DNA of 50,111 nucleotides from an uncultured virus (IMG/VR IMGVR_UViG_3300009111_000004) (lineage: Duplodnaviria > Heunggongvirae > Uroviricota > Caudoviricetes). Within the stretch, counting starts at the first letter, position 1, and every line of letters begins with the position of its first letter. Below the pieces are notes generated by a model, which saw only the letters and a list, made by a program, of their open reading frames with translations, made no database searches and had not been told where the DNA came from. This document shows positions 132 to 49,048 of the stretch, piece after piece. A program made the translations under genes and the position numbers. Location: the IMG/VR virus record IMGVR_UViG_3300009111_000004. One strand, 5' to 3'.

Positions 132-147
132 TGCAAGTCGCGGGCCG
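132..147 (-). promoter_or_regulatory. sigma54-type -24/-12 promoter motif
   Basis: CGGCCCGCGACTTGCA = GG-N10-GC. Confidence 0.7.
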
Positions 148-158
148 GGCATTTTAAC

Positions 159-380
159 TTAAGAACACAATTCACATGAATGTGTAATACGATCATCGAT
201 AGTGGTGAAGACTTGACCAGACAGATCTACGCACTCTACTATATAATGTTCAACTTCTCTAATGACAAACTTGGTGCCTGGTTGGATTACTAGGCGTAAA
301 TTACGATTCTGTGGATACACCAACAAGGAACCAGTAGGAATTACTTGCCAAATTTGACCTGGGGTCAATATCAATAGCAC
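159..380 (-). CDS. GQIW-family SH3-like small protein
   Basis: PGQIWQV...GTKFVI...HSCEL. Confidence 0.75.
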   Translation of the reverse strand: MLLILTPGQIWQVIPTGSLLVYPQNRNLRLVIQPGTKFVIREVEHYIVECVDLSGQVFTTIDDRITHSCELCS

Positions 381-646
381 ATCTTCCCATATTCAATAAG
401 GGCACTTTTTGAAATCACAATCTCCCCTGTAATGTTAGGACATATGCATACTACCATTATTTTATTACTAGTAGTATCTTTGATAATTACCTTGTCTTCA
501 TGGAGAAGTCGTATATCTAGAACAATCCAATTACTAGAATTGTACTTGCGACACAGCAATCGCACAGATACCCCATCTGGGTTAACGATCTTCCATACTT
601 GACCAACAATGAGTTGGTCAGTATTCATTGGCTGACATGTAGCCAT
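371..646 (-). CDS. GQIW-family SH3-like small protein
   Basis: VGQVWKI...EDKVII. Confidence 0.75.
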   Translation of the reverse strand: MATCQPMNTDQLIVGQVWKIVNPDGVSVRLLCRKYNSSNWIVLDIRLLHEDKVIIKDTTSNKIMVVCICPNITGEIVISKSALIEYGKMCY

Positions 647-900
647 TCAATTATGGCTCGTTTTTCGTCTTCGACTTTCTTGAGATCAATTTCAAAATAA
701 TCTGCTAGGAATGTCTCAATACTAATTGAGACTTCTTCTGGATCACCGCTACTATTAAGTTTGTAGATACAGTATCCTTTTTCACCCATGAGCCAATCTA
801 AAAAGCCACCAATTACTTGGGATTCAAGCTTGATCGCTCTGAGCCTGTCTAGTTCTGGAGTCGCTGGATATCTTTCTTGTTTATTCATCATATTCCTCAA
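625..900 (-). CDS. hypothetical protein
   Basis: ORF in packed minus-strand block. Confidence 0.7.
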   Translation of the reverse strand: MRNMMNKQERYPATPELDRLRAIKLESQVIGGFLDWLMGEKGYCIYKLNSSGDPEEVSISIETFLADYFEIDLKKVEDEKRAIIEWLHVSQ

Positions 901-1474
901 TACCGGAATCTAGATTGCTGCAATCCTCCTCAGATTCTTCATCATGATCAATGATATAATCGATGCGAGCAGCAATAACTCGCCCCTGCTTATCCTTGAC
1001 TATATAACAATTATAACTACCGTCTCCAAAACCAGAACTAGATATGGTACCAAACTTAATTACTCCGCCTTGAACTTCTCCAAGAGTAAGATTGCTAACG
1101 GCAGTATAGAATTGTTGCTCATATCCATCATCACGTGGATTATCAGGGTAACAATCATTATCGAAAAACCCAGCTTGTCCAGAGTCTACTCCAACATCGA
1201 TCCCTGAGTCTTCACTGGCCATTTTGGCCATATCTATGTTTCCATTTTTATCGTGCCATACTAAAAGTTTATTAACCCGGATTCCCCAATATTTCTCATC
1301 CTTATATGAAATTGCAGCTTTCCAATCTCCCGGCAAAGCTGGTATTGTGCCTGAACAGTATACTGTCTTGTCATAACACGGATCGGTGACCCGTAATAGA
1401 TTAGCGGTTAGCTTAAATGTACCTAATATCTTAATAGTATGCATGGTATTCCTCATAGTAGGTATTATATCCAT
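881..1474 (-). CDS. DUF4241-like protein
   Basis: VTDPCY, GVDSGQAGFFD and SSGFGDGSY motifs. Confidence 0.65.
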   Translation of the reverse strand: MDIIPTMRNTMHTIKILGTFKLTANLLRVTDPCYDKTVYCSGTIPALPGDWKAAISYKDEKYWGIRVNKLLVWHDKNGNIDMAKMASEDSGIDVGVDSGQAGFFDNDCYPDNPRDDGYEQQFYTAVSNLTLGEVQGGVIKFGTISSSGFGDGSYNCYIVKDKQGRVIAARIDYIIDHDEESEEDCSNLDSGIEEYDE

Positions 1475-1500
1475 TGTAATCAGCTTGCTACGGAAACTAA

Positions 1501-1686
1501 TTAGGTAGATTGGTTAAGAATCGATGAAATATCACGTAGGTCTCCTAAGGTAATAGTATCCTGAGTCCCGACGAGAATTTCGGTATCATCTGGAGTCTCA
1601 TCGGAGACCCCACTCCAATCATGGAGTACTACAATTAGTCTACGGAGGAGTACTAAATGCGCATCTGTAATTTTAATATTAGTCAT
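1501..1686 (-). CDS. hypothetical protein
   Basis: ORF track, operon context. Confidence 0.6.
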   Translation of the reverse strand: MTNIKITDAHLVLLRRLIVVLHDWSGVSDETPDDTEILVGTQDTITLGDLRDISSILNQST

Positions 1687-1689
1687 TTA

Positions 1690-1848
1690 TTAGATAATGT
1701 GAATAACAATGGCGTGAGTGATACTGGGCCATAGTAATGTGAATAATATGAGCCCAATAAGCATTATTAACATTAGAATGCACACATTAAGTATTATTAG
1801 AATGCACACATTAAAAATGATAATAAAGACTTGACAAAATGCTTTCAT
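1690..1848 (-). CDS. small hydrophobic membrane peptide with internal 24-bp-period duplication
   Basis: MKAFCQVFIIIFNVCILIILNVCILMLI...; attagaatgcacacattaa at 1772 and 1796. Confidence 0.5.
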   Translation of the reverse strand: MKAFCQVFIIIFNVCILIILNVCILMLIMLIGLILFTLLWPSITHAIVIHII

Positions 1849-2045
1849 TAGATAATTTCAAAGTGCTCTTGTACTACAGCTAAAAGATGATTATAATCAT
1901 CTTCCATCATTTTGGATTTAAGAGCATTAATCTCATCCATAGCCCAACCAGCTTTGCGGGCAGCTTTAATACATTTACCAATAATGACGAACGCATTACC
2001 ATCTTCACCAATCAGAGACACCTCTGGTTTATTATTGGTCACCAT
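1848..2045 (-). CDS. hypothetical phage protein
   Basis: LIGEDGNAF...DYNHLL pattern resembling small phage proteins. Confidence 0.75.
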   Translation of the reverse strand: MVTNNKPEVSLIGEDGNAFVIIGKCIKAARKAGWAMDEINALKSKMMEDDYNHLLAVVQEHFEII

Positions 2046-2063
2046 GTCAATTTCCCTTGATAA

Positions 2064-2351: not shown

Positions 2352-2358
2352 TTTGAAT

Positions 2359-2672
2359 TATTAGGATAGCGCACCACGACTAGCCCTATCCCTAATAGCA
2401 TCGACATCGACATAGGTAATCCTATGTCAATTGTATCGGTACAGCGAAGTCACACCCTTCCCGATGATCGTGTCTCGCCCAACCCATGACGGATTCAACC
2501 CCGTCCATAGCCATTTCATATTCCCCAGGTGTGAGACTGGGATCTTACTATACCATAGTAATTATGGACTATGGGTAGTCTTTCCTACCAGTCAGGATCG
2601 CATTTCACTGCACATCGTGGATTCAACCCCACATTCAGAGGTTTTACCTCCCCAATGCGATCTTTTGGGATC
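2359..2672 (-). ncRNA. putative structured ncRNA with two tandem pseudoknot/T-loop-like modules
   Basis: modules at 2450-2544 and 2596-2672; 27-mer shared with 3686-3712; closing hairpins at 2359-2428. Confidence 0.65.
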
Positions 2673-2713
2673 CAATCACGTACACGTCGTGTCTAACTAG
2701 ACAAGTCGGTGTC

Positions 2714-2787
2714 ATCGTGTTATCCTCTGTCATATCTAAGTACTAAGAAATCGTGTTATCCTCTGTCATATCTAAGTACTAAGAAAT
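2714..2787. repeat. 36-bp tandem duplication
   Basis: atcgtgttatcctctgtcatatctaagtactaagaa x2. Confidence 0.9.
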
Positions 2788-2793
2788 AGATTT

Positions 2794-5054: not shown

Positions 5055-5453
5055 CTAATTTTTACTAAGACGTGCTTCCAAAATATCGCGATAATTTTTC
5101 ATTGCGAGTAATTGAGCCTGGAGGTGTTGACGCTGCTCTTCTACTGTCCGATGTAGGTAAATTCGACGTTGTTCAGTCTGTTCTGGTGAATCATTGGTAG
5201 AATTAGTCCGTTGCTTGGTGTGACTTGGACATCGATGGGACTGATGCCAATCACTTTGTTCTCGTAAATGAATAGCTATGCATTGCTGAAAAGTACAGGT
5301 CATCTGGGCCTGACGCTTTCCATGAGGACTCAATTCTGCAAGAATTGTGCCAGTAGCTCCATGGTCATTGGTAAAAATTAGTCCAGCTACTGATTCTTTT
5401 TGGTGAATCTTATTTTTAATTACTGATAAAGGTAGTGGTATATTGTTATCCAT
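5055..5453 (-). CDS. hypothetical protein, SDWHQ-motif paralog of 8922..9257
   Basis: GKRQAQMTC...HLREQSDWHQSHRC. Confidence 0.75.
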   Translation of the reverse strand: MDNNIPLPLSVIKNKIHQKESVAGLIFTNDHGATGTILAELSPHGKRQAQMTCTFQQCIAIHLREQSDWHQSHRCPSHTKQRTNSTNDSPEQTEQRRIYLHRTVEEQRQHLQAQLLAMKNYRDILEARLSKN

Positions 5454-6222: not shown

Positions 6223-6564
6223 CTATTCTAAAAGATAGATGTGATGATAATCATCTCGGTAAATAAATCCAAAAGTTCCCCAATGATTGACATATAAAAA
6301 AGACGAATCGACCTTACGTTCTACTAGTAGTCGATCTCCAGTTGAAAGAACGGTAATTCTCCCAGAGGGAAAACCATGATATAAATTAATTGAATCAATA
6401 ACTTCTAAGATATCACCAGAATCTAAGTACTGATAGGCTAGGTCTACCCTAGATCTTTTGATGTTTCCAGTAGCGTGGGAAGTTGCGCCAGGATTCATTA
6501 ATGCGATTCCACTGAGAGATAACTGTTTTCTCTGGGACAGAATGAATATTCCGATGAGCAGCAA
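6223..6564 (-). CDS. divergent GQIW-family protein (start uncertain)
   Basis: SGDILEVI...GDRLLV. Confidence 0.55.
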   Translation of the reverse strand: MLLIGIFILSQRKQLSLSGIALMNPGATSHATGNIKRSRVDLAYQYLDSGDILEVIDSINLYHGFPSGRITVLSTGDRLLVERKVDSSFLYVNHWGTFGFIYRDDYHHIYLLE

Positions 6565-6919
6565 TCTGTGGGTCGGTAATAAAAATAATTATCTCAACTT
6601 CATGTCCCCATGCAATAGCCAATTGATAATATGGAGCGATCTCAGCAACCGATGTATTAGTATTGTCAACAATCACCAACATATTACTAGATCCGTTTGG
6701 ATCTTCTGCTCCATGTATGAGCCACATGGTATATTTACGAAGACATTGGGCGTGTGCCTCTGAGAGTTTTGTCCGATCAAATTTATATTGATTATCTACC
6801 ATAAAGAAGTTGTCAGCAGAAAAACACTCTACATTAGAAGCGCCGTATTTATCGATTGTTCGCTGAGTGTAAGTACTTTTCCCAGCCCCACTAACTCCTT
6901 GCAAAATTTGAACTTTCAT
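6449..6919 (-). CDS. P-loop kinase, AAA_33 / polynucleotide-kinase-like
   Basis: GVSGAGKST Walker A, SADNFF, IVDNTN, RNIHSVP. Confidence 0.85.
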   Translation of the reverse strand: MKVQILQGVSGAGKSTYTQRTIDKYGASNVECFSADNFFMVDNQYKFDRTKLSEAHAQCLRKYTMWLIHGAEDPNGSSNMLVIVDNTNTSVAEIAPYYQLAIAWGHEVEIIIFITDPQIAAHRNIHSVPEKTVISQWNRINESWRNFPRYWKHQKI

Positions 6920-6978
6920 TAGGTGGTCCCGACAAATTGTATAGCCGTCCTTATAACTATAGATAAGGAATTAGGTAG

Positions 6979-7230
6979 CTACACTGTAGTTGGTAGAATT
7001 TTAGTTGTTTGTGTTATATCCAACTTAGACTTGTTCACTATACCGACTGGATGTTCTTCAACTTCAACTTGATAATAGATTTTATTATCGAAGATATATT
7101 TCTGACAAATCGTGATTTGCGTAAATACGCCAATCGGCCCCTGGAAGCACCAGCCTATTCCTTGATTGAACCACTCATTGAGTTTAGTGCCTTCGATCAA
7201 GTGTAGTGGCTTGGGGTCAGGATTAGACAT
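6979..7230 (-). CDS. hypothetical protein
   Basis: ORF track. Confidence 0.6.
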   Translation of the reverse strand: MSNPDPKPLHLIEGTKLNEWFNQGIGWCFQGPIGVFTQITICQKYIFDNKIYYQVEVEEHPVGIVNKSKLDITQTTKILPTTV

Positions 7231-7390
7231 TTGAGTATAGAGGCGAAGTCGCTTATGGTGATACGTAGTGCCAGCTCGGTACCGATGACTGTCGGGATTG
7301 TCGGATCAACCAAATCATTATTGATATAACACCTATAAAGCAGAGTCCTAGTAGGCTAACTATTAACCACATTAATTCACGAGACATTGA

Positions 7391-7651
7391 TTAAATCTGG
7401 AAAGATCTGGGAGAAACGCTACTGGGATTTGTGTCAAAATCTTTGATAAATTTCTGAATACTCTTTGAGAAATTGATATCTTGGATACACCTACCATATT
7501 TTGTAACAATACAAACCGATGAGTCCCAAACCTGATAACGATATCCAGGCGGTAGAGGGAGTTGACAGTTCAACGCTAATGCCATAGCACACTTTTCCAT
7601 GCTATAACATTTACCAGCGTCAATCATTTCTTGGGTTACTTGAAATCGCAT
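7391..7651 (-). CDS. hypothetical phage protein
   Basis: start MRFQVTQEMI just downstream of the tRNA. Confidence 0.7.
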   Translation of the reverse strand: MRFQVTQEMIDAGKCYSMEKCAMALALNCQLPLPPGYRYQVWDSSVCIVTKYGRCIQDINFSKSIQKFIKDFDTNPSSVSPRSFQI

Positions 7652-7677
7652 ATGGTCCCCGTTGTGATAGAAATATG

Positions 7678-7778
7678 TCGGCCCACTTGGATTCGAACCA
7701 AGATTGTCCACTAATCAAGTGGCAGCCTTTCGGCGCCCGGGTATAAGCCGGGGGTCCTACCAATTGAACGATGGGCCG
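7678..7778 (-). tRNA. tRNA-Ile (TAT) with two-hairpin extra arm, 101 nt, no CCA
   Basis: acceptor CGGCCCA/TGGGCCG-A; anticodon arm CCCGG-CTTATAC-CCGGG; T arm CTTGG-TTCGAAT-CCAAG. Confidence 0.85.
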
Positions 7779-7785
7779 GGTACGA

Positions 7786-8106
7786 CTACTTTGTGAAATG
7801 ATCAAGCGTGGGATATTGTTTAGGCTTCTTGTTGTCAGAACGCTTGTGCTCTGGTTTTTGGGTACTAGCCTGAATTCTTAACTGAAGGCGGGTTCGCTCC
7901 TTCTTAGCTCCAATATCAATTCCAAGTCTGGAATTGAGTAGAGCAATCTGGTCTCGGTCCGAGCGTTCTATCCGTGCCTTCTGGCGCTCCACAGCTTGAT
8001 TATGTTTTACCAGTTGCTTTGCTCGCAGGACCTTATTACGAGCACCAGCAGGACGCTCCATGTTTGGAATATGACGATCATTAATACTGGACATTATGTT
8101 CTCCAT
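7786..8106 (-). CDS. basic hypothetical protein
   Basis: ORF track, K/R-rich. Confidence 0.7.
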   Translation of the reverse strand: MENIMSSINDRHIPNMERPAGARNKVLRAKQLVKHNQAVERQKARIERSDRDQIALLNSRLGIDIGAKKERTRLQLRIQASTQKPEHKRSDNKKPKQYPTLDHFTK

Positions 8107-8168
8107 ACTACTAGATTAAATCTATATGTTGATAGATACCTTTATGTCTTTAGGAATACTAAGTCTTT

Positions 8169-8411
8169 TTATAAAGGTTTCTTCGGTGCCTTTCCTCTGG
8201 TGGCAACTATCGCCTTTAAGTCTTCTAGATAAGTGGTTATTCCGCGATTAGTTAATTCGATTGAAGCGTCTATACATAACGTCTTGCGACGTAGAATATC
8301 AGCCAGAGCTTGCATTCCTACTCTCTCCAGATGATCCACTAATTTGAACATCTCCGACTGAACGGCACCGATAATTACCTGGGAATTCTGCAAGTCTTGC
8401 AGCCACGTCAT
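8169..8411 (-). CDS. hypothetical protein
   Basis: ORF track. Confidence 0.65.
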   Translation of the reverse strand: MTWLQDLQNSQVIIGAVQSEMFKLVDHLERVGMQALADILRRKTLCIDASIELTNRGITTYLEDLKAIVATRGKAPKKPL

Positions 8412-8439
8412 AGTACATTCTTAGGTGAAATTATGGTTT

Positions 8440-8748
8440 TTAAATGCGATGTATAGATTCGTGATGATCAGCTGGATCACAGCAATCATTGACTGAGAAC
8501 ATACAACCGTCCTCTAGAGTAACTAGGGCGTCGCCTACGTAGGCGAACCGCGATTCTCGAAACCATGAGTCTAGACTACAAGCCCAATGTGGTGAACAAT
8601 AATTGACTACTTCCACAATTTTACGCGTCCATTCTGGGATCCAGTATTCAACAGAAATGTTGGTAATTCTTAAGTGTTTATATCTACAATCACAAACTGC
8701 GTCACCTATTTGAAGTGACTGAAGCCATCTTAATTTGTCGTAAGACAT
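8440..8748 (-). CDS. hypothetical protein
   Basis: start MSYDK inferred; LQIGDAVCDC. Confidence 0.65.
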   Translation of the reverse strand: MSYDKLRWLQSLQIGDAVCDCRYKHLRITNISVEYWIPEWTRKIVEVVNYCSPHWACSLDSWFRESRFAYVGDALVTLEDGCMFSVNDCCDPADHHESIHRI

Positions 8749-8921
8749 CGTATACCCCGGTGTGGGATTGAACCACTGCATATAAATACCGATTCCCATA
8801 CGCTGGCGCAGCTCCGTATGGGACCATTTTCTGGCGCCCCAAATCTAGGCCAAATCGGTCGCACCGTCCTGCAATACCGGACTAGGGTAGCCCCAGTTTA
8901 GTAAACAGCAGAACTAGTTGG

Positions 8922-9257
8922 CTACTGGGTAGCTATATCTAGTTTTACCTCATCCTTCTTAGGCAGCTTTTTGCCAGCCATATCAGGAGACCGAGAGCAT
9001 TGGTGCCAGTCAGACATGGCTCGAACATGATCTGAGCCCCCTGCCCAGCACTTCATCTTTGCCTGTACCTTCCCAAACTTATTCAGATCTGGGAGTACTA
9101 CGCCTGTAGTTGGTTCCTCTGAACGACCTCCTTGAAATTGGAGACCAGCCAGAGGCTGATTCTTATTCTGCCTTAGTAGATCCTTAGCCTCCTTCAAGGT
9201 GTACACCTTGTTAGGATCGAATTCTACCTTCTTCATCTCTGTATTCGACTCAGCCAT
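8922..9257 (-). CDS. hypothetical protein, SDWHQ-motif paralog of 5055..5453
   Basis: GKVQAKMKC...HVRAMSDWHQCSRS; GGAG SD upstream. Confidence 0.8.
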   Translation of the reverse strand: MAESNTEMKKVEFDPNKVYTLKEAKDLLRQNKNQPLAGLQFQGGRSEEPTTGVVLPDLNKFGKVQAKMKCWAGGSDHVRAMSDWHQCSRSPDMAGKKLPKKDEVKLDIATQ

Positions 9258-9314
9258 TGCGGTACTCCCATGTTGGACAGATTTGTGCGGGCTGTGGAGC
9301 CCCGGCTACCGAAG

Positions 9315-9330
9315 TTCAAGCGCCATGCCA
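9315..9330 (-). promoter_or_regulatory. sigma54-like motif (variant -12)
   Basis: TGGCATGGCGCTTGAA. Confidence 0.45.
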
Positions 9331-9344
9331 GCGCGCAAGGGCTA

Positions 9345-9746
9345 TTATTCGTTGAACAATAGCGATTCAATATCTACGCCCTCTAACTTGGAGAAATAGT
9401 GACCCCATTCTTTATGTCCGGTATATAATCCATCTAGAATTTGTTGTTTTAGTATTTTAGCATCATTATGATTGGCGAAAACATTAATGATTTGACCAAG
9501 ACCATGAGTGGTACTAAAGGTACCACCATCACAATAACGAGCAATCACGACATATACTATAGAACCGGTTGCTATTTTACTAGTTGTTTTAACTTCAACA
9601 TAATAAGGGTTTTCTGGTCTATTCTTTGAGATGCCTTTGACTATGAAATTACACTCTACGTAACGATGACCAGTATATTGACCATCATAGCCGTAAGTGT
9701 TGCTTATAATGATTTGCTCGTCAGAGTATATTACATACATTTTCAT
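9345..9746 (-). CDS. hypothetical protein
   Basis: ORF track, 133 aa. Confidence 0.75.
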   Translation of the reverse strand: MKMYVIYSDEQIIISNTYGYDGQYTGHRYVECNFIVKGISKNRPENPYYVEVKTTSKIATGSIVYVVIARYCDGGTFSTTHGLGQIINVFANHNDAKILKQQILDGLYTGHKEWGHYFSKLEGVDIESLLFNE

Positions 9747-9755
9747 AAATTATCC

Positions 9756-9980
9756 TTAAGCTATTCTCAGAATACAGTATTTCTTAAGTAGATATTCACG
9801 TATGTATTTTACACCATTAGGATTAATACAAGTCATTACGTTTCCTAGCTCGGGTGGATCATTAGGATATGAGTGGGTTCCAGCTATAAAAAGCGTGTCT
9901 CCAACAGAAAGTTCCCAACCAGTCGGAAAGTCCTTTACAACTTCCCAAGTTTGATCGATTTCGCAAGACGCTGTACTCAT
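9756..9980 (-). CDS. GQIW-family protein
   Basis: IDQTWEVV...VGDTLFI...KYCIL. Confidence 0.7.
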   Translation of the reverse strand: MSTASCEIDQTWEVVKDFPTGWELSVGDTLFIAGTHSYPNDPPELGNVMTCINPNGVKYIREYLLKKYCILRIA

Positions 9981-10267
9981 GACTTATCTGGGCTCATTCG
10001 AATAACAAATTCCGTTTCTGTAAATCCGGCAAATTTATGACTATTTTTCTGGTAGAGTTCAGCAATACGAACAATAATCGGTTCAGTCCAAACTAGGCGC
10101 CTCCGGACCCGTCTATAAGTCTGGTCTTCAAAAGTAGGGCTTTCAATATAACTAATATTATCGCGATCATACCAACAACGAATTTTAGCCTGTCGAAATG
10201 CCTTAATTTGAGCATCAGTTAAGTAACCATACTTAACCAAGTCCTTGGGCGGCATTACTTCTCTCAC
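9977..10267 (-). CDS. hypothetical protein
   Basis: ORF track. Confidence 0.65.
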   Translation of the reverse strand: MREVMPPKDLVKYGYLTDAQIKAFRQAKIRCWYDRDNISYIESPTFEDQTYRRVRRRLVWTEPIIVRIAELYQKNSHKFAGFTETEFVIRMSPDKS

Positions 10268-10269
10268 CT

Positions 10270-10302
10270 CTGAATTTGGTCTCTGAGGTTCATATCAACT
10301 CG
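10270..10302. repeat. 33-bp dispersed repeat, identical to 35738-35770
   Basis: ctgaatttggtctctgaggttcatatcaactcg. Confidence 0.9.
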
Positions 10303-10554
10303 CTAGCTATTTAGTAATTTACAATGTTCAATTATCCAAACTCTCAAACGATGAATAACTGTACCATTAGTAGTTAACATATGATACACCCACATATCAT
10401 GTGTCTGGAATGTCGGATGACATATTGGTTCGGTTATAATAATAAATTTATCACCGACTCTGGTGGTGGTGCATATACCGTTTCTATGAATCGTATCCTG
10501 TTCCCAAACCTGACCTAATTTTATTTCTACTAATTTTATAGCGTCTTGGCCCAT
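10303..10554 (-). CDS. GQIW-family protein
   Basis: LGQVWEQ...VGDKFII...HCKLL. Confidence 0.8.
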   Translation of the reverse strand: MGQDAIKLVEIKLGQVWEQDTIHRNGICTTTRVGDKFIIITEPICHPTFQTHDMWVYHMLTTNGTVIHRLRVWIIEHCKLLNS

Positions 10555-10763
10555 TGTAGCCGATCAATAAGCATTTGGTAGACGCAGTCTTTGACTGTAA
10601 TAATAGTTTGGTTAGTAGTGCATTGCTTATTAGCATCGTTATGATCAGTAAAAATCAATTCTAAAGGATAGCTGGCATGTTCCCAGTAGTAACTCTGGCC
10701 TTCCTGGTACCAGGTCTTCGGAACAATTACCCATAGTTCATCTGATCGATGAGCATTCATCAT
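10536..10763 (-). CDS. hypothetical protein, paralog of 12004..12264
   Basis: LWVIVPKTWY...LIFTD...C..TIITV. Confidence 0.7.
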   Translation of the reverse strand: MMNAHRSDELWVIVPKTWYQEGQSYYWEHASYPLELIFTDHNDANKQCTTNQTIITVKDCVYQMLIDRLQWAKTL

Positions 10764-10764
10764 T

Positions 10765-11082
10765 TTATCCCTCTATTACTTGGGGCATTGGATTCCATAT
10801 CGCAAGGACTTCTCGATGCTTACCAATTATCCATACATTGAATCCGAGCGGTATATCACGCTCGCCATGCCAATTTTTTCGAGCCTGACCTTTAGATGAG
10901 AAAAATCCAGCTTGAACCAGAATATCTAACATATTGATTGAAGGTGATATATGTTGAACATGTTCAGTACCAAATAGATCCGGTTCAATCTCAGGAAACC
11001 AATGTTGATTTTGAACGACGAAATTTAACAAGTTCCCTCCGCATAAGATCAATTGATGGGTCAAATCGCCAGAATCCATCAA
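10765..11082 (-). CDS. stand-alone S4-like RNA-binding domain protein
   Basis: LDILVQAGFFSSKGQARK resembles the TyrRS C-terminal S4 motif. Confidence 0.6.
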   Translation of the reverse strand: MMDSGDLTHQLILCGGNLLNFVVQNQHWFPEIEPDLFGTEHVQHISPSINMLDILVQAGFFSSKGQARKNWHGERDIPLGFNVWIIGKHREVLAIWNPMPQVIEG

Positions 11083-11620
11083 AATTTACAATATCAACTA
11101 CTAGCATATCTTGCCAGATATCATCTTCAGTTAATTTATACCAGACTTTACCGCGACGATTCCATTCTCTGGTTGATACGTGATTAGGTCGATCGGTATT
11201 ATCCCAATAACCATATTCTTCTAACCGGGGATCTATCTTAAGAAAATCTAAGATATGTGTTAGTAGTCCGTTTGTGTACGGAATTAAATACCAATACCGA
11301 CCATGACGACGGACAGTAATTGATACGTCTAAACAAAAAGTATTATGTTCTGGACGGCTAAGCGTCTCTGCGTACATTCTACGAATATATTCGTAGATAG
11401 CTACATCATTAAGTTTACGTTCGGTCCAAATTAGTCTCGAGTTGTCCAAGACTGCTGCTTTAAATTCTTTATCAGTTTTAGTAGATTTTAAAAGTATTGA
11501 ATACCACTTTTTAAGGGAGCGTTTAGCGTTATCTGCTGCAGCCTTACGAATGTCCATTAATGTAGACCAAGGATCGTTACCTAACTTAATTCTATAGGCT
11601 GTATGAATTTTAGTAGACAT
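10991..11620 (-). CDS. hypothetical protein
   Basis: long ORF; start MSTKIH inferred. Confidence 0.8.
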   Translation of the reverse strand: MSTKIHTAYRIKLGNDPWSTLMDIRKAAADNAKRSLKKWYSILLKSTKTDKEFKAAVLDNSRLIWTERKLNDVAIYEYIRRMYAETLSRPEHNTFCLDVSITVRRHGRYWYLIPYTNGLLTHILDFLKIDPRLEEYGYWDNTDRPNHVSTREWNRRGKVWYKLTEDDIWQDMLVVDIVNFDGFWRFDPSIDLMRRELVKFRRSKSTLVS

Positions 11621-12311: not shown

Positions 12312-12650
12312 TTATTCCTTATCGGAGACGAGGTCGGCCTGCCTAATTGGCTGCAAGCTGCGGGCCGTGTATGGTTCCTGATGAGCTCGGGCTTCTTGTA
12401 TGGCTGCGTCAAGTTCTTGAGCAGCCATAGCTAGCTCAGGGTCTTGATTGAGTGTCGGATTACAAGAATCTGGATAGTTATGATCAACAAATGGTTCAAG
12501 ATTATAATTTGGAATTACTGCCTCAAAAGCAGTCATGGCATCAGTCAGAGCGCTTCGTCCGACTGCTCCATTAAGATAATTACGAAGGGCAATAGTAAGT
12601 GCAGTGCCGCGAGCATAATAAATATCTAGTTGTTCATTCATGGATTTCAT
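12312..12650 (-). CDS. hypothetical protein
   Basis: ORF track. Confidence 0.7.
   Translation of the reverse strand: MKSMNEQLDIYYARGTALTIALRNYLNGAVGRSALTDAMTAFEAVIPNYNLEPFVDHNYPDSCNPTLNQDPELAMAAQELDAAIQEARAHQEPYTARSLQPIRQADLVSDKE
12352..12367 (-). promoter_or_regulatory. sigma54-type promoter motif inside the 3' end of a CDS
   Basis: CGGCCCGCAGCTTGCA. Confidence 0.6.
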
Positions 12651-15283: not shown

Positions 15284-15299
15284 TGCAAGCGCCGGGCCG
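15284..15299 (-). promoter_or_regulatory. sigma54-type promoter motif
   Basis: CGGCCCGGCGCTTGCA. Confidence 0.7.
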
Positions 15300-21956: not shown

Positions 21957-21972
21957 TGCAAGTCGTGGGCCG
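21957..21972 (-). promoter_or_regulatory. sigma54-type promoter motif
   Basis: CGGCCCACGACTTGCA. Confidence 0.7.
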
Positions 21973-23187: not shown

Positions 23188-23203
23188 TGCAAGCGCCGGG
23201 CCG
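23188..23203 (-). promoter_or_regulatory. sigma54-type promoter motif
   Basis: CGGCCCGGCGCTTGCA. Confidence 0.7.
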
Positions 23204-31579: not shown

Positions 31580-31595
31580 TGCAAATCGCGGGCCG
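31580..31595 (-). promoter_or_regulatory. sigma54-type promoter motif upstream of the ORF + tmRNA unit
   Basis: CGGCCCGCGATTTGCA. Confidence 0.7.
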
Positions 31596-34966: not shown

Positions 34967-34982
34967 TGCAACGCACGTTCCA
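34967..34982 (-). promoter_or_regulatory. sigma54-type promoter motif
   Basis: TGGAACGTGCGTTGCA. Confidence 0.6.
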
Positions 34983-37405: not shown

Positions 37406-37421
37406 TGCAAGCGCCGGGCCG
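37406..37421 (-). promoter_or_regulatory. sigma54-type promoter motif
   Basis: CGGCCCGGCGCTTGCA. Confidence 0.7.
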
Positions 37422-37941: not shown

Positions 37942-38000
37942 TGCGAGCGCCGCGCCCGATATCCTTAGTCAAACTAGTTCTGCGCGGCCCGCTACTTGCA
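37942..38000. promoter_or_regulatory. back-to-back sigma54-type motifs at the strand switch
   Basis: minus 37942-37957 GGGCGCGGCGCTCGCA; plus 37985-38000 CGGCCCGCTACTTGCA. Confidence 0.7.
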
Positions 38001-38081: not shown

Positions 38082-38309
38082 ATGAATCTGGAACCAATTA
38101 ATAATGATATTCAGATTATGGTAGGGTCAGTTTGGTGGGCTAGAACAAACATTTATTGGTATGGTGAATTATTGCTTCATGCCTACGATAAAGTTCTTGT
38201 CAAGAATGTTACTCAAAATATGGTTAGTTTTATTTTCAATAATAGTAACGATGTGTGGGTCATGGACTGCGATGAATTTATCTCTATGTGTGAATTAGCT
38301 CTACTGTGA
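38082..38309 (+). CDS. GQIW-family protein
   Basis: VGSVWWA...AYDKVLV...MCEL. Confidence 0.75.
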   Translation: MNLEPINNDIQIMVGSVWWARTNIYWYGELLLHAYDKVLVKNVTQNMVSFIFNNSNDVWVMDCDEFISMCELALL

Positions 38310-39782: not shown

Positions 39783-39798
39783 CGGCGAGCGGCTTGCA
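39783..39798 (+). promoter_or_regulatory. sigma54-type promoter motif
   Basis: CGGCGAGCGGCTTGCA. Confidence 0.7.
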
Positions 39799-39861: not shown

Positions 39862-40617
39862 ATGGGTGATTCTGCTGCGTGGTATCGGTTTACAGGGTTG
39901 CAACTGGATGAGTTGCCGGACTCAAGCTGTCGTACTGACTCGATATGGGGTACTAATGATAACGAAGATGCTGTATCAGGAGATATTCTAACCATCGACG
40001 GGACGGAATTCGTGATGATCTCCTCCCCGATGGGTGAGGAGCCTAACTACCTCTTCCTCAGGAACAATCGTTCCTTCACCTTCTTCGCATACAGTCGGTG
40101 GGGTGATCATAGTGAAGGCGGATACGAGTTTGATGTATTCCTCGACCCATTTCGCCCTGAGGAACAAGAGCTGGCCAACCAGCGCGACGCCAAGATCCTA
40201 AAAATCGCACAAGACAAGTTTGGTGGGACAATCAAGATCGTCGAGGGATGGTTCGATTCTCTCACAGATGGCAGTGAGGGCGAAGAGGCGGCCTTCCACA
40301 CAATCCGTGGCGGGATCGAACTCGACTTGAAGACCATTGCTAATGAGGCGCAGATCGTCGCCATAGATGAGGCGTGGAATGCCTTGTGGGATCCAGCCGC
40401 AAAAGAAGACTCGGAGAAAGGCCCATTCTACTTGCTCCGCCGAGCTATACCTCGTCCAGATCCGGATGCCCCATGGATCTGCGTGTCCTGTTTTAATCCG
40501 GCTGTCGGTGGGTTCGGCCAATATGATCGATACTGTGAGCACTGCAAGAAAAATGTGGCCGCGTTCCGGACGGATCTATGGATTGACCACCCACCGGTAG
40601 CTCACAATAAAGGATGA
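39862..40617 (+). CDS. acidic hypothetical protein with C-terminal zinc ribbon
   Basis: GGAGG SD; CVSC...CEHC. Confidence 0.85.
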   Translation: MGDSAAWYRFTGLQLDELPDSSCRTDSIWGTNDNEDAVSGDILTIDGTEFVMISSPMGEEPNYLFLRNNRSFTFFAYSRWGDHSEGGYEFDVFLDPFRPEEQELANQRDAKILKIAQDKFGGTIKIVEGWFDSLTDGSEGEEAAFHTIRGGIELDLKTIANEAQIVAIDEAWNALWDPAAKEDSEKGPFYLLRRAIPRPDPDAPWICVSCFNPAVGGFGQYDRYCEHCKKNVAAFRTDLWIDHPPVAHNKG

Positions 40618-42311: not shown

Positions 42312-42383
42312 AAGCCGATGTATTAAACTAAGCCGATGTATTAAACTAAGCCGATGTACTAAACTAAGCCGATGTACTAAACT
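42312..42383. repeat. 18-bp tandem repeat x4
   Basis: aagccgatgtaYtaaact x4, followed by aagtttatctattt x2. Confidence 0.9.
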
Positions 42384-42580
42384 AACGAACCGTCAGTACT
42401 CCTCTCCTTCTTATTAAGTTTATCTATTTGCTGTGCTTCAAGTTTATCTATTTCGTCTATATTAAAGTATAGTTTATTCGCGTGTCCGTCATCCCCCGGA
42501 TCAGCAGTAATCAGCGGGAGCGGGGATCGATCCATGGGAGAGGTAGTATAGGCGCTCATAATACCTTCATAGCGTGGCCT

Positions 42581-42596
42581 CGGCGCGCGGCTTGCA
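42581..42596 (+). promoter_or_regulatory. sigma54-type promoter motif
   Basis: CGGCGCGCGGCTTGCA. Confidence 0.7.
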
Positions 42597-42632: not shown

Positions 42633-42869
42633 GTGAAGGCTTGGGAAACAGAGTCGTTGTTTCCAGATGGTGAGACCCACCGGTCGATCCGCCTCACTCT
42701 CTTGGATGCAGCAGTGATTCGAGTAGAGGTCCTGGAAGGTCCACCTCTTGGGGATTTGCAGGAGTTGGTTCCCGTGGGTGCGTATAACCCAGAGGCTGAT
42801 ATTTCCACTTGGCAGGAGTATATCGCACACGAGTGGCGATTTCTCCAGGGCACGGTCGGGGAGAGTTGA
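42633..42869 (+). CDS. hypothetical protein
   Basis: AAGGAG SD + GTG. Confidence 0.8.
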   Translation: MKAWETESLFPDGETHRSIRLTLLDAAVIRVEVLEGPPLGDLQELVPVGAYNPEADISTWQEYIAHEWRFLQGTVGES

Positions 42870-42883
42870 CTAAGATATTCGGG

Positions 42884-42899
42884 CGGCGCGGCGCTTGCA
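42884..42899 (+). promoter_or_regulatory. sigma54-type promoter motif
   Basis: CGGCGCGGCGCTTGCA. Confidence 0.7.
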
Positions 42900-42948: not shown

Positions 42949-43177
42949 ATGGAGAAGGAAATTCTGAAGAGCATTATTTTCGAACTCAAGGAGTGCACCA
43001 CTCAAGGAGTGCACCACTCAAGGAAGTGAGTGGTTCGTCAACGACGAAGAAGGGGTAGAGCAATCCGTCGAGGTTGTGGAGACAGGTCCCGATACCGTCA
43101 CCATCCAATACTTTACTGGTTTCAAAGACCAGGAAGTGCGTCGCACCTTCCGGGTGTCCATCACCGAAGTCAAATAG
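42949..43177 (+). pseudogene. paralog of 43189..43437 frameshifted by a 16-bp tandem duplication
   Basis: actcaaggagtgcacc x2 at 42984-43015; collapsing it restores a 70-aa ORF. Confidence 0.85.
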
Positions 43178-43188
43178 AGGTACCCCAA

Positions 43189-43437
43189 ATGAAGAACAGA
43201 ATCCTGACTGACATTCTTGCAGGGCTCAAGCCCGACGGTGGTAGCGAGGAAGAGTGGCTCGTTCAGGATGAAGATGGACATGAGCAATCCATCTGTGTCG
43301 TGGAGACTGGGCTCGACACCTTCACCATCGAGTATTACCCAAACGTCAGCCCTAACACCGACACTGTCGAATACCGTGCTGGTGTGGTCAATCCTTGCCG
43401 GCGGACCTTCCAAGTGACCCTCACCGAAGTCAACTAG
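43189..43437 (+). CDS. acidic hypothetical protein
   Basis: MKNRIL...EWLVQDEDGHEQS...RRTFQVTLTEVN; GAGG SD. Confidence 0.8.
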   Translation: MKNRILTDILAGLKPDGGSEEEWLVQDEDGHEQSICVVETGLDTFTIEYYPNVSPNTDTVEYRAGVVNPCRRTFQVTLTEVN

Positions 43438-43609: not shown

Positions 43610-43625
43610 CGGCACGCGGCTTGCA
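43610..43625 (+). promoter_or_regulatory. sigma54-type promoter motif (near consensus)
   Basis: CGGCACGCGGCTTGCA. Confidence 0.75.
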
Positions 43626-43961: not shown

Positions 43962-43977
43962 CGGCGCGCCGCTTGCA
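43962..43977 (+). promoter_or_regulatory. sigma54-type motif pointing into the non-coding parS region
   Basis: CGGCGCGCCGCTTGCA. Confidence 0.65.
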
Positions 43978-44123
43978 TTTGAGATCGCGGCCCGTCGGGC
44001 GGGCGGGTAGCCCGGATCTCTTCTACCAGCATCTTGTTGGTAGCAAGATAATCTAATAATGGAGGATTACGCCAATGCCCTAGTATGAACCCCTGCGGGG
44101 GAGTGAACATTTAAAACCAACTT

Positions 44124-44280
44124 GGGCCTCGGGTGAGTTCTCCCCGAGGCCCATTTATATTTGAGTGTTCCACGTGGAACACTCTATTTACTCTGAATAC
44201 GGTTCCTCGTCGGAACAAGGACGTACCGGGAGTCAAGTAAATAAATACAGCTTCGCCTCGGGGAGAACTCACCCGAGGCG
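44124..44280. repeat. 25-bp inverted repeat pair, each arm a hairpin, bracketing parS
   Basis: gcctcgggtgagttctccccgaggc ... gcctcggggagaactcacccgaggc. Confidence 0.9.
44166..44181. other. parS: parS centromere-like site
   Basis: TGTTCCACGTGGAACA matches the bacterial parS consensus TGTTNCACGTGNAACA; palindrome extends 44163-44184. Confidence 0.8.
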
Positions 44281-46601: not shown

Positions 46602-46973
46602 TTACAGGGTGCTGACCGTGTCCGGCGTGCAGAACCCGTTCTCCGGGTCGTTTGCGGGGTAGTGGGGCCTTTGCGGATCATTGAGGTGAGTGCCGCACCG
46701 GGGGCAAGCCGGGATGGCGTTGTTGACGTGCTGGGCGAGCACGGTGTGGAATTTTAGATAGAGATCGAAATGCTCCTTCAGGGTCGGCGGTTTCTTACCA
46801 AAGGACCTTCGTCCCCTGATGAGATTGGTGCAGATCAATTCGATCGTTACGCCCTTCATTGATGGGAGTTTCTTAGCACGCTCTCGGAAACGGTAGGCGG
46901 TGTTATACGATCCGAAGGTGAAGATTCGGCCAGGAGTGATCACTGTGTGGATGGCGACCGATTTCTTTTTCAA
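46602..46973 (-). CDS. hypothetical protein (cassette after repeat R1)
   Basis: TTG start directly after the repeat; CPRC. Confidence 0.7.
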   Translation of the reverse strand: MKKKSVAIHTVITPGRIFTFGSYNTAYRFRERAKKLPSMKGVTIELICTNLIRGRRSFGKKPPTLKEHFDLYLKFHTVLAQHVNNAIPACPRCGTHLNDPQRPHYPANDPENGFCTPDTVSTL

Positions 46974-47057
46974 GATCTATCCCTGACTCCTCCCCGAGGA
47001 GATCTCGGGGAAGCGACCAGAGAGGGGAGGTGCCGCGGCACCTCCCCGAAACCAAGG

Positions 47058-47073
47058 TGCAAGCCGCAAGCCG
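47058..47073 (-). promoter_or_regulatory. sigma54-type motif upstream of R1
   Basis: CGGCTTGCGGCTTGCA. Confidence 0.65.
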
Positions 47074-47090
47074 GGCCAGCTACTGAGATG

Positions 47091-47381
47091 TCAGCACTGG
47101 CAGGAGCCAGGACCACAAATCCCAGCACCGTGATCCGGCAATTCCTCCGTCCGGATCACCACCTTGGGAGAAGAACCGACGTTGAACCAGTGCCGGTCCG
47201 GGATCCCGTACTTCTTGGTGTACTCGAAGGCTGCCAGAAGACCGGGAGCGACGCTGTGTGCGTCATTCGGATCGATCTTGATGAATTCGACCTTCCCAGG
47301 GATCCTCTCGGTGGGTGACGGATTGGCATCGTAGCCGACGACCCTGGTCCAGGATTGCACTTTGAAAGTAGGCACGTTCAA
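47091..47381 (-). CDS. hypothetical protein (cassette after R2)
   Basis: GGAGCGAA + TTG. Confidence 0.75.
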   Translation of the reverse strand: MNVPTFKVQSWTRVVGYDANPSPTERIPGKVEFIKIDPNDAHSVAPGLLAAFEYTKKYGIPDRHWFNVGSSPKVVIRTEELPDHGAGICGPGSCQC

Positions 47382-47459
47382 TTCGCTCCCTGACTCCTCT
47401 CCGAGTGGATCTCGGGAAGGCGACCAGAGAGGGGAGGGTTGGCCCTCCCCTTCATGTGG

Positions 47460-47657
47460 TTAGTAAATAACACACTCTTCATCATTCAAAGTGGTGTAAT
47501 CCAGATCGAGACAAACGATCTTTCTATCCGCTGTCATCCGGATGTAACCGATTTGAGTTACCCATCCGTTAAATTTGGCCATTGTGACCCCGATTTGAGT
47601 CTCTGGCGGGATTCCTTTCAATGCTTCGAGCAACTGTCCTACTGTCTGAAGTGCCAT
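47460..47657 (-). CDS. hypothetical protein
   Basis: TVGQLLEALK motif. Confidence 0.75.
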   Translation of the reverse strand: MALQTVGQLLEALKGIPPETQIGVTMAKFNGWVTQIGYIRMTADRKIVCLDLDYTTLNDEECVIY

Positions 47658-47665
47658 TGTTTAAT

Positions 47666-47902
47666 TCACTCCTCCACTGTTTCGATGGCGTGCTCGAAGA
47701 TGGAGAGCATCGTCTTGGCTCTGCGCTCCACCTGTGTGATTTTCTTTTCCCGATCGTCAATAGAAAGACCGATGTAGTTGCGGTTCACGTATGCCGCAGA
47801 GTCTGCTCTCTTCTCCCAGAACTCGTAGAAGGCATCGCGCAGGAGATCTCGAACGTTGCCTTCCTGGAGATCGCAATTGGAGAAATCCAAGATAATCTTC
47901 AT
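47666..47902 (-). CDS. hypothetical protein (cassette after R3)
   Basis: GGAGCGAAG + ATG MKIILD. Confidence 0.75.
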   Translation of the reverse strand: MKIILDFSNCDLQEGNVRDLLRDAFYEFWEKRADSAAYVNRNYIGLSIDDREKKITQVERRAKTMLSIFEHAIETVEE

Positions 47903-47983
47903 CTTCGCTCCCTGACTCCTCTCCGAGTGGATCTCGGGAAGGCGACCAGAGAGGGGAGGGTTGGCCCTCCCCACCAGGTTGCT

Positions 47984-48421
47984 TCAGATCACCCGTTCGA
48001 TCAGGACTTCCCCATCGAGGACCTTGATGGTGCCCACCTCGTTGCGGGAGGCCAGGGCACTGCAGAAATCCGGGCCATTGGGTCCGTCATTCCTGGGCAG
48101 GACGATCCTGACGTCCAGGTGACGATCGAAGCACTTGAGGGAGTCGACCAGATCTCCGACCGTGGGGTGAGCCGTGAGGACTTGGTCCGGGAGATCCTTG
48201 TTCTTCACCATCTCGAATGAGACCTTGATCTGGAACTCCTTGAAGTTGAGGATCATGTGGTCCCCTTTGTCGAGAACCGCGATTCCCACCGATCCAGGAA
48301 GATCCTTGAAGGGCGTTCCTACCGCCTTGAGGATCTCATGGGCATCCCCGCAGACCAGCTGGGTCTTCAGGCGATCGATCGCTGTCAGGTAGTTGATCAC
48401 CGCACCTGTCTTCTCGCTCAT
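47984..48421 (-). CDS. hypothetical protein (cassette after R4)
   Basis: GGAGG + ATG MSEKTG; TVGDLVDSLK. Confidence 0.8.
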   Translation of the reverse strand: MSEKTGAVINYLTAIDRLKTQLVCGDAHEILKAVGTPFKDLPGSVGIAVLDKGDHMILNFKEFQIKVSFEMVKNKDLPDQVLTAHPTVGDLVDSLKCFDRHLDVRIVLPRNDGPNGPDFCSALASRNEVGTIKVLDGEVLIERVI

Positions 48422-48534
48422 TTTCTCACCTCCAACCCCGGTCCGAGGAGATCTCAGGCCGGTGAGCAGAGGATCGAAAAACAACAGGGGGTGAGTGAGA
48501 AGATCACTCACCCCCTGTTGTTGCCGTGGCTGGA

Positions 48535-48846
48535 TCAGTTCGCCTGGTTGGGGGTGGTGGCCGCGTCCAGGTCTGCCTCGGACATCTCGGTCGCGGTCTC
48601 GGCGGACACGATCCGGAACCGGACCTCACCCAGGGGGAACCTGCCCGCTCCCTTGGCGCAGAGGTGGATCTTCTCGCCCTTGCCCATGACCCAGGTCACG
48701 GTCCGGGTGTTCGCCTCGCCCTCGATCTGGATCTTCTCCCCGGGCCGCCACTCCTTGGTCCCTGCGGCCAGCCCCACCCCGAGGGATCCGGTGTCGCGGT
48801 TGTTGGGGACGGTGAGGGTGAAACGGTTGGTCTGGTCGTCGCTCAT
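48535..48846 (-). CDS. hypothetical protein, duplicated at 49940..50111
   Basis: GAGG + MSDDQTNRF; GC3-rich. Confidence 0.8.
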   Translation of the reverse strand: MSDDQTNRFTLTVPNNRDTGSLGVGLAAGTKEWRPGEKIQIEGEANTRTVTWVMGKGEKIHLCAKGAGRFPLGEVRFRIVSAETATEMSEADLDAATTPNQAN

Positions 48847-48914
48847 GTCGTGCCTCGTTGTGCTGCGTGGTTGCCGTGGCGGACGATCCGCCCCGGTTGC
48901 TGCCCTGCGAGCCC

Positions 48915-48930
48915 TGCGAGCGCCGTGCCG
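48915..48930 (-). promoter_or_regulatory. sigma54-type motif
   Basis: CGGCACGGCGCTCGCA. Confidence 0.6.
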
Positions 48931-49032
48931 CGCGCCGCGCTTGACCATCTGTTGTTCCCTGACTCCTCCCCGAGTGGATCTCGGGAAGGCGACCAGAGAG
49001 GGGAGGTGCCGCGGCACCTCCCCGAAACCAAA

Positions 49033-49048
49033 TGCAAGCCGCAAGCCA
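49033..49048 (-). promoter_or_regulatory. sigma54-type motif upstream of R5
   Basis: TGGCTTGCGGCTTGCA. Confidence 0.65.

Follow-up and report, generated by a model that had tools for sequence, protein, structure and literature searches.

Phages are known to take over the main sigma factor of their host or to bring a polymerase of their own. Which machinery reads the genes is the question raised by a 50,111-base stretch of DNA from an uncultured virus of the class Caudoviricetes (IMG/VR record IMGVR_UViG_3300009111_000004; the whole stretch is called the window here), in which copies of one short element recur ahead of the genes. An earlier note, made from the letters alone, had listed 19 positions of this element in the loose form YGG-N10-GCA and had likened it to the −24/−12 signature that is recognised by sigma-54 (RpoN). 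On the evidence described below, we lean towards the view that the repeated element acts as the chief promoter in this part of the genome and that it belongs to the sigma-54 (−24/−12) class.

Results

Conservation and enrichment of the block

The element was found at all 19 listed positions (Table 1). Fifteen of these, termed strong sites, fit YGGC-N7-TTGCA, 14 of them exactly as CGGC-N7-TTGCA and the one at 49033 as TGGC-N7-TTGCA. The four variants lie at 9315 (TTGAA), 34967 (TGGA), and 37942 and 48915 (both CTCGCA). A position count showed that GGC and TTGCA, 7 nt apart, are kept in all 15 strong sites, and that three further letters are each present in 14: the C directly ahead of GGC, the G four letters after that triplet and the C directly ahead of TTGCA. 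The conserved block spans 16 to 18 bp, c-N-CGGC-c-C-G-N3-C-TTGCA, and the strong sites revealed no conserved letters further upstream or immediately downstream of it. When the variants are included, all 19 sites have GG and all but 9315, which has GA, have GC; the spacing between the two is exactly 10 nt in every case.

The degree of enrichment depends on how tightly the motif is written. The loose form used in the earlier note is only weakly enriched (48 occurrences versus 32.5 ± 5.7, with 1 of 100 shuffles reaching 48), whereas the tight form is strongly enriched. Indeed, CGGC-N7-TTGCA with at most one mismatch occurs 20 times against an expectation of 6.5 ± 2.7, a number that none of 100 shuffles reached, and GGC-N7-TTGC occurs 18 times in the window against an expectation of 3.6 ± 1.8, with a shuffle maximum of 8.

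Some copies are alike beyond the block. One 16-mer is identical at 15284, 23188 and 37406, and about 100 nt are common to the sites at 47058 and 49033. The sites at 23188 and 37406 share further bases and the assembly graph branches there, a loose end at 37402 (run X2) reading into the leader of 23188. No sequence variation was observed at the sites in the contigs of four DNA runs, of which those with a small share covered little. A textbook TGGCACAATTCTTGCA is also present at 5337-5352 (minus strand), on the sense strand within gene 5055-5453; it has no G+C-rich leader and could be a chance match or an internal site.

Position of the sites relative to genes

All 19 sites are located on the sense strand of their own gene block, which agrees with the orientation reported in the earlier note. 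The strand of the sites also switches where that of the genes does: the sites read in the minus direction as far as 37.9 kb, in the plus direction between 37.98 and 43.97 kb and in the minus direction again from 47 kb, and almost all ORFs are minus-strand up to 37.9 kb, plus-strand between 38.0 and 43.8 kb and minus-strand again from 43.9 kb. At 17 of the sites the start codon follows the predicted start point by 26 to 83 nt, the exceptions being 34967 and 43962. The description of the sites as almost all intergenic holds once the spurious wrong-strand open reading frames (ORFs) of the G+C-rich part are set aside, with 12352 as the exception (Table 1). The further claim that gene blocks are headed almost entirely by such motifs stands for the long, tightly packed blocks, each of which begins with a site. 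Because about 40 further intergenic gaps of at least 40 nt carry no site, "almost entirely" is fair only for these major blocks.

Two places are instructive about what the sites may do. The region 37877-38082 must hold two promoters, since the two genes that flank it, with starts at 37876 (minus strand) and 38083 (plus strand), face outward. It contains two copies of the motif back to back, 27 bp apart, each facing its own gene, and no other conserved element was found there. At the second place, the product of site 43962 is probably a structured RNA some 170 nt long (Table 1), because the site is followed by only an 8-codon ORF and by strong hairpins that end in a terminator-like structure.

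The G+C-rich leader that had been noticed downstream of the sites was confirmed by a position profile of the 15 strong sites. The G+C content is about 40% upstream, about 43% for the 8 bases after TTGCA and about 80% for the next 20 bases or so. The jump starts about 10 bases after the A of TTGCA, which corresponds to −2 to +1 if the C of GC is placed at −12. This is the profile that would be expected for a melted stretch of low G+C content followed by a G+C-rich transcript start. Many of the G+C-rich stretches downstream of the sites fold into small 5′ hairpins, which differ in sequence and in distance from the block; the start positions of these hairpins were too noisy for use, and the G+C profile was used instead.

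Assignment to a promoter class

The available text of the ProPr54 paper (PMC11704786) gives the pattern of sigma-54 sites as TGGCA(T/C)(G/A)nnnnTTGCA, and the likeness to the RpoN signature holds against this pattern in its spacing and in all strongly conserved letters. When the strong sites are compared with the extended consensus TGGCA(C/T)(G/A)-N4-TTGCA, GGC and TTGCA are found in 15 of 15 and the G in 14, and the leading T is replaced by C in 14. As in bacterial sigma-54 promoters, with glnAp2, nifH and pspA among the classic examples, GG and GC are 10 nt apart, the best-kept letters are GGC, G and TTGCA, and the sites are nonpalindromic, directional and placed a short distance before genes. 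They differ from the bacterial promoters in having a G+C-rich spacer, C for T and C or G for A, in being without upstream activator sites or a nearby activator gene, and in their density, which is about 2.8 sites per 10 kb in the window versus at most about 0.06 per 10 kb in sampled Myxococcota genomes.

A promoter of the sigma-70 family does not fit the sites, because the two blocks lie 11 bp apart from centre to centre, one helical turn, and this is too short for a −35/−10 promoter. Moreover, matches to the sigma-70-type consensus are not enriched, either in the whole window (115, of which 47 lie on the sense and 68 on the antisense strand, versus 112.4 ± 10.4) or in its first 20 kb (54 versus 60.1 ± 7.4). 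No conserved letters were found 16 to 18 nt after TTGCA, nor is there a sigma-70-type promoter at or beside the sites. When words were counted, in the window as a whole and in 45 oriented intergenic gaps, no second motif shared by intergenic regions emerged; the remaining frequent words derive from a hairpin repeat at 47 to 50 kb and from sequence that codes for a motif in a family of small proteins.

The earlier note had proposed a phage that runs its early or accessory programme on a host or self-encoded sigma-54. This proposal is borne out in part: the DNA is phage-like, the motif follows the sigma-54 pattern and it is the sole enriched promoter-like signal, but the window holds neither an rpoN or activator domain nor a site shared upstream of the motif.

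Several observations weigh against the assignment to sigma-54. At the first position, 16 of the 19 sites have C where T is usual, and most have C or G in place of the A of TGGCA. The search for rpoN and for enhancer-binding ATPase (PF00158) domains that the earlier note had advised gave no match in the 147 ORFs of the window, and neither a GAFTGA-like loop nor an RpoN box was found in a six-frame scan of it; the only Walker A motif within an ORF is that of a kinase-like protein. In the 220 nt upstream of the 19 sites, which are mostly the coding ends of unrelated genes, no 7- to 9-mer occurs in more than five regions, and this lack of a shared upstream element does not fit canonical enhancer-dependent sigma-54 promoters, where an AAA+ activator binds about 80 to 150 bp upstream. 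The roughly 40 intergenic gaps without the motif may hold promoters that were not recognised. The DNA of the window occurs in wetland metagenomes from one study, in five runs, all of which are DNA metagenomes with no RNA run among them. Finally, E. coli RpoN gave 16 matches and PspF 66 among 50,697 phage records, and since all of these appear to be bacterial contigs filed as phage, a phage-borne sigma-54 activator is without clear precedent.

Related records and the literature were searched for the same components. PF00158 was not found in five IMG/VR records of 53 to 197 kb that carry a related ligase, and a review of jumbo phages (PMC7824862) contains no mention of sigma54/sigma-54, NtrC, enhancer-binding or RpoN. 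Phage YuA, which is reported to have a sigma-54-like promoter (PMC10914365, in the text available, citing Ceyssens 2008), was the only precedent for such a phage promoter that came up. An activator-like phage protein without the GAFTGA loop is described in the accessible part of a 2026 preprint (10.64898/2026.10.06.757011).

The right end of the window

From 42.3 kb on, the sequencing depth is about twice that of the rest of the window (46 versus 22 in run X1 and 18.3 versus 7.8 in run X2). The change falls at an 18-nt tandem repeat (42312-42385, 4.1 copies, 98% matches), soon after which the G+C content rises, from about 40% up to 39 kb to 52 to 63% at 43 to 50 kb. The double depth may reflect a long terminal repeat or a module shared by two strains. 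This G+C-rich right part contains 7 of the 19 sites together with very small genes.

A repeat of two hairpins is also found in this part (Table 1). Its units directly precede small genes, and the second hairpin carries the ribosome-binding site. The motif heads two of the eight copies; the other six come directly after a stop codon, have TGATCTGAAGCAACCTGGTGGGG instead of the motif and look like intercistronic elements. A duplication of 164 nt with 98% identity (48588-48751 and 49948-50111), the second copy of which is cut by the end of the window, is probably the reason why the assembly stops there. A 16-nt tandem repeat (42984-43024, 2.6 copies) lies inside the small gene that starts at 42949. 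Its period is not a multiple of 3, and because it shifts the frame relative to the paralogue 43189-43437 (region 43028-43437), the gene at 42949 may be broken or length-variable.

Gene content, relatives and host

The window has more than 100 small ORFs and a phage-like content that includes RNA ligase, a CCA-adding enzyme, RlaP, HNH endonucleases, an NlpC/P60 domain, a transfer-messenger RNA (tmRNA) and four tRNAs, among them tRNA-Leu(UAA) and tRNA-Leu(CAA). This set of RNA repair and translation genes is typical of large phages. A protein search found the ligase of the window recorded on four contigs, the longest of 174,304 bp, and returned relatives at 80% identity (P0002) and at 54 to 60% (P0003 to P0021), several of the latter on contigs of 168 to 179 kb. 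It follows that the window is only part of a phage genome of 174 kb or more.

Other searches for relatives had little return. Megablast against phages gave no close relatives, and initial searches for the ligase in IMG/VR and JGI metagenomes were without a match; alignment-based scans of IMG/VR and metagenomes found only ligase relatives of at most 49% identity, and these showed no enrichment of the motif. Three window proteins compared with phages by tblastn reached 31 to 38% identity at best, and a fourth had no match. The pattern GGC-N2-G-N4-TTGC[AT] occurs 14 times in the 50-kb window, versus 25 times in 1.32 Mb (73 IMG/VR loci) and 15 times in 0.68 Mb (80 metagenome loci) of the surroundings of related ligase genes. 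Its form ending in TTGCA has no matches in two 485-kb uncultured phages or in the 170-kb Myxococcus phage Mx1, and the 28 matches of GGC-N7-TTGC in Mx1 equal the 28 of the reversed control. Searching IMG/VR for patterns of 16 and 17 letters yielded isolated matches on scattered contigs, and the sole contig with two matches has 3 sites in 82 kb. Within the sequences searched, the motif is specific to this phage lineage. An unrelated viral contig of 52.8 kb (L213, IMG/VR record G404:C1 52284-52781) has, at its end, three canonical sigma-54-like sites in a span of 500 bp; two of these stand back to back on opposite strands, 24 bp from start to start, like the divergent pair of the window.

A G+C-rich host is suggested by two features: the A+T-rich gene set includes tRNA-Leu(UAA) and tRNA-Leu(CAA), and the promoters and the tmRNA are G+C-rich. 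Across 50,697 phage records the tmRNA has a single look-alike, a tmRNA of Mx1 that is not annotated (L139 4990-5367, 117.7 bits), and the bacterial look-alikes are in metagenome-assembled genomes (MAGs) of the Anaeromyxobacteraceae (78% over 85 nt) and of the Armatimonadota (85% over 59 nt). A 23-letter tmRNA pattern was found at 29 loci, only 2 of which had extended tmRNA matches; the pattern of the tag had no matches in genome contigs; and of 201 Myxococcota genomes sampled, 14 have a match to the 5′ part, with identities of up to 79%. The tmRNA gives a weak hint of a myxobacterial host, the Armatimonadota MAG matching equally well. A GC-rich protein of the window had no match in 401 Myxococcota genomes. 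Patterns of the CGGC and TGGC types exceed their reversed control in a few of 41 Myxococcota genomes and do not in most, and are not informative on the host.

A number of further observations were made on the window. The tmRNA lies about 310 nt downstream of site 31580, and its tag, read from the alignment, is ANGFVAPVAMA followed by two stop codons. A scattered RNA repair set (polynucleotide-kinase-like [PNK-like] kinase, cREC_REC, RlaP, CCA-adding enzyme and RNA ligase) spans 6449-25042 on the minus strand; the bacterial Rtc RNA repair operon is itself described as sigma-54-dependent in the available text of PMC9879122. A match to the type II hammerhead ribozyme (RF02276; 38.8 bits, gathering score 37) is located at 26443-26505 (minus strand), in the gap between two phage genes. 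The commonest 10- to 12-mers of the window (e.g., CCAAATTTGACC) code for G-Q-I-W, a motif that many small proteins carry close to their start, with examples at 348, 12912, 15494, 18283, 20033, 25213 and 38389; these proteins form a large diverged paralogous family, the members of which are joined by BLAST only in trios. A stretch of 440 nt without genes (2352-2793, minus strand) contains a 36-nt repeat (2.1 copies, 100% matches) and two strings that resemble tRNA T-arms (GGGGTTGAATCC), with no Rfam or ARAGORN match. A window protein of 251 amino acids gave no usable match in an Atlas look-up.

Table 1. Positions, strands and surroundings of the motif sites and of other features of the window
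Feature	Coordinates	Strand	Sequence	Surroundings or remarks
Strong site	132..147	-	CGGCCCGCGACTTGCA	ATG at ~72; gene runs off left end of window
Variant site	9315..9330	-	TGGCATGGCGCTTGAA	GA for GC at -13/-12; gene 8922-9257 starts 57 nt downstream
Strong site	12352..12367	-	CGGCCCGCAGCTTGCA	Within last codons of upstream ORF; gene 12004-12264 starts 87 nt downstream
Strong site	15284..15299	-	CGGCCCGGCGCTTGCA	Gene 14678-15226 starts 57 nt downstream
Strong site	21957..21972	-	CGGCCCACGACTTGCA	Gene 21646-21900 starts 56 nt downstream
Strong site	23188..23203	-	CGGCCCGGCGCTTGCA	Gene 22900-23118 starts 69 nt downstream
Strong site	31580..31595	-	CGGCCCGCGATTTGCA	Heads ORF 31278-31517, then tmRNA gene
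Variant site	34967..34982	-	TGGAACGTGCGTTGCA	Next gene with ribosome-binding site, 34452-34739, starts 227 nt downstream of the site; distance to first gene also given as 217 nt
Strong site	37406..37421	-	CGGCCCGGCGCTTGCA	After terminator-like hairpin; gene 37052-37312 starts 93 nt downstream
Variant site	37942..37957	-	GGGCGCGGCGCTCGCA	Left arm of divergent pair; gene 37541-37876 starts 65 nt downstream
Strong site	37985..38000	+	CGGCCCGCTACTTGCA	Right arm of divergent pair; ATG at 38083 opens 75-aa ORF
Strong site	39783..39798	+	CGGCGAGCGGCTTGCA	Gene 39862-40617 starts 63 nt downstream
Strong site	42581..42596	+	CGGCGCGCGGCTTGCA	Gene 42633-42869 starts 36 nt downstream
Strong site	42884..42899	+	CGGCGCGGCGCTTGCA	ATG at 42949
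Strong site	43610..43625	+	CGGCACGCGGCTTGCA	ATG at 43677 opens 25-aa ORF
Strong site	43962..43977	+	CGGCGCGCCGCTTGCA	Followed by only an 8-aa ORF
Strong site	47058..47073	-	CGGCTTGCGGCTTGCA	Two-hairpin leader, then gene 46602-46973
Variant site	48915..48930	-	CGGCACGGCGCTCGCA	Gene 48535-48846 starts 68 nt downstream
Strong site	49033..49048	-	TGGCTTGCGGCTTGCA	Same two-hairpin leader as at 47058
Candidate small RNA	43988..44160	+		From predicted start to terminator-like hairpin with T-rich tail; fold energy -30.1 for first 70 nt
Two-hairpin repeat, ~76 nt, eight copies	46975..49923	-		Copies at 46975, 47382, 47904, 48419, 48951, 49365, 49725, 49848
AAA_33/PNK-like protein	6449-6919	-
cREC_REC receiver domain	13474-13863	-
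RlaP nucleotidyltransferase	16128-17333	-
CCA-adding enzyme	20127-21386	-
RNA ligase	23978-25042	-		
tmRNA, full length	30872-31260	-		Rfam RF00023, 113.8 bits; missed by ARAGORN

Discussion

From the sequence we infer that the 19 sites are, very probably, promoters of some kind. Their dependence on sigma-54 is a less secure step, and is somewhat favoured. The promoter unit would then have four parts: the recognition block of 16 to 18 bp; about 8 bp of lower G+C content, where the DNA would melt; about 20 bp of some 80% G+C, beginning at a start site predicted 12 nt after the GC, the RNA of which would often fold as a 5′ hairpin; and a short leader that carries a ribosome-binding site and runs into the first of the operon's tightly packed genes.

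A sigma-54 holoenzyme is silent until an ATPase opens the complex. In the mechanism proposed, sigma-54 RNA polymerase, most likely with the RpoN of the host, would dock on the block as a closed complex, and one ATP-driven activator would open the closed complexes at all sites at once. This activator would act from solution, because no shared enhancer was found upstream of the sites, and would be encoded outside the window or by the host, because the window holds no activator domain. It is probably a phage product encoded outside the 50-kb fragment, which would make the promoters a phage-controlled switch. Transcription would start where the G+C-rich stretch begins, and the 5′ hairpin may stabilise the message.

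Activators of this kind are known from bacteria. FlgR of Helicobacter and Campylobacter, CtcC of Chlamydia and, in vitro, PspF 1-275 activate sigma-54 without a DNA-binding domain and independently of enhancers. A similar protein would explain the joint firing of many sigma-54 promoters without upstream sites; the difference is that no such protein was found in the window, and its existence in the phage or the host is conjecture.

The same features were weighed under other explanations. The conserved block is one contiguous unit of 16 to 18 bp, like the promoters of single-subunit phage polymerases, and its C-for-T and C/G-for-A departures are uniform across the sites, as would be expected of a dedicated reader. 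The sites could be promoters read by a phage RNA polymerase or by a phage protein that redirects the host polymerase, in which case the likeness to sigma-54 would be convergent, or by a divergent, activator-free phage homologue of sigma-54. Neither an enhancer nor an activator gene was seen in the window, the motif is absent from other large phages and so lineage-specific, and most of the genome (at least 124 kb of at least 174 kb) lies outside the window, all of which agrees with a reader of this kind. We nevertheless consider it unlikely. No RNA polymerase or sigma gene is present in the window, and 10 of about 12 informative letters match the sigma-54 pattern with the exact spacing, which is improbable by convergence. 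Moreover, the promoters of single-subunit polymerases are conserved through the start site, whereas here 8 to 10 unconserved bases separate the block from the G+C-rich onset.

Stable binding without initiation is a property of the sigma-54 holoenzyme, and widespread binding of sigma-54 at nonpromoter sites in E. coli is reported in the available text of PMC4591121. The sites might be bound in this manner, by the holoenzyme or by another protein, and serve as docking points, decoys or roadblocks beside promoters of an unrecognised kind, which would agree with the lack of an activator or enhancer in the window. The arrangement of the sites makes this very improbable: 19 of 19 point with the genes at a set distance before start codons, and none is reversed or faces another. 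No sigma-70-type promoter overlaps or accompanies them or is enriched in the window, and the divergent region at 37.9 kb has no other conserved element.

The identical 16-mers (15284, 23188 and 37406), the further bases shared by 23188 and 37406, the 100 nt or so shared by 47058 and 49033, the G+C-rich hairpins after most sites and the many sites that come after an upstream stop codon with no terminator between could also be read as an RNA-level element (a processing or protein-binding site in read-through transcripts) or as a mobile cassette spread by recombination with its hairpin, and this we regard as likewise very improbable: the block shows no self-complementarity and nothing conserved with which it could pair, the hairpins that follow vary in sequence and distance, read-through cannot explain the divergent pair, hairpin and motif are separable because six of the eight hairpin-repeat copies at 47 to 50 kb lack the motif, and mobility of a cassette is in any case compatible with promoter function.

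The reading of the sites as sigma-54-class promoters can be compared with three phage systems. Promoters of the sigma-54 type are textbook knowledge, and in a phage a single one has been reported, that of Pseudomonas phage YuA. According to the available text of PMC10914365, the phage promoter of YuA is likewise assigned to the sigma-54 type, but it is one such promoter beside sigma-70-like and phage-specific ones, whereas in the window the element is the sole recurrent signal, with at least 15 units in 50 kb. The window also resembles T4-type phages, in which Arbiol, Comeau and Krisch reportedly described promoter-early stem-loop (PeSL) cassettes in 2010. In both, a promoter with a stem-loop is repeated between small accessory genes of a large phage, and near-identical copies suggest spread by recombination; PeSL promoters are of the sigma-70 early type, whereas the block in the window is of the sigma-54 type and G+C-rich in A+T-rich DNA. 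The resemblance is a likeness in design, not membership. The right end shares with the host-takeover modules in the terminal repeats of SPO1 and T5 the dense promoters before very small genes and, in two samples, a depth of about twice the rest; those modules use the main sigma factor of the host, and the terminal repeat of the window is only a candidate.

The novelty lies in a large phage fragment whose only recurrent promoter signal is an element of the sigma-54 type, with at least 15 units in 50 kb, no enhancers and a compact promoter-plus-leader cassette. It is possible, although the balance tips against it at present, that whole blocks of a phage genome of at least 174 kb are run solely from enhancerless promoters of the sigma-54 class, maybe including the module of double depth that resembles those for host takeover, by means of a phage-made activator that acts from solution or of an activator-independent, sigma-54-like factor.

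Because the sigma-54 holoenzyme is silent until an ATPase acts, such promoters would, if the reading is true, form an all-or-none switch orthogonal to the sigma-70 control of the host. The finding would then point to an activator that has yet to be described, and the unit of about 45 bp, with its recognition block, melting stretch and GC hairpin, would be usable as a building block for orthogonal expression. Should a reader other than sigma-54 be at work, the motif marks the promoter recognised by an unknown phage transcription factor. If whole blocks are indeed run solely from such promoters, this phage would have a dedicated viral sigma-54 transcription programme, built from portable promoter-plus-hairpin cassettes.

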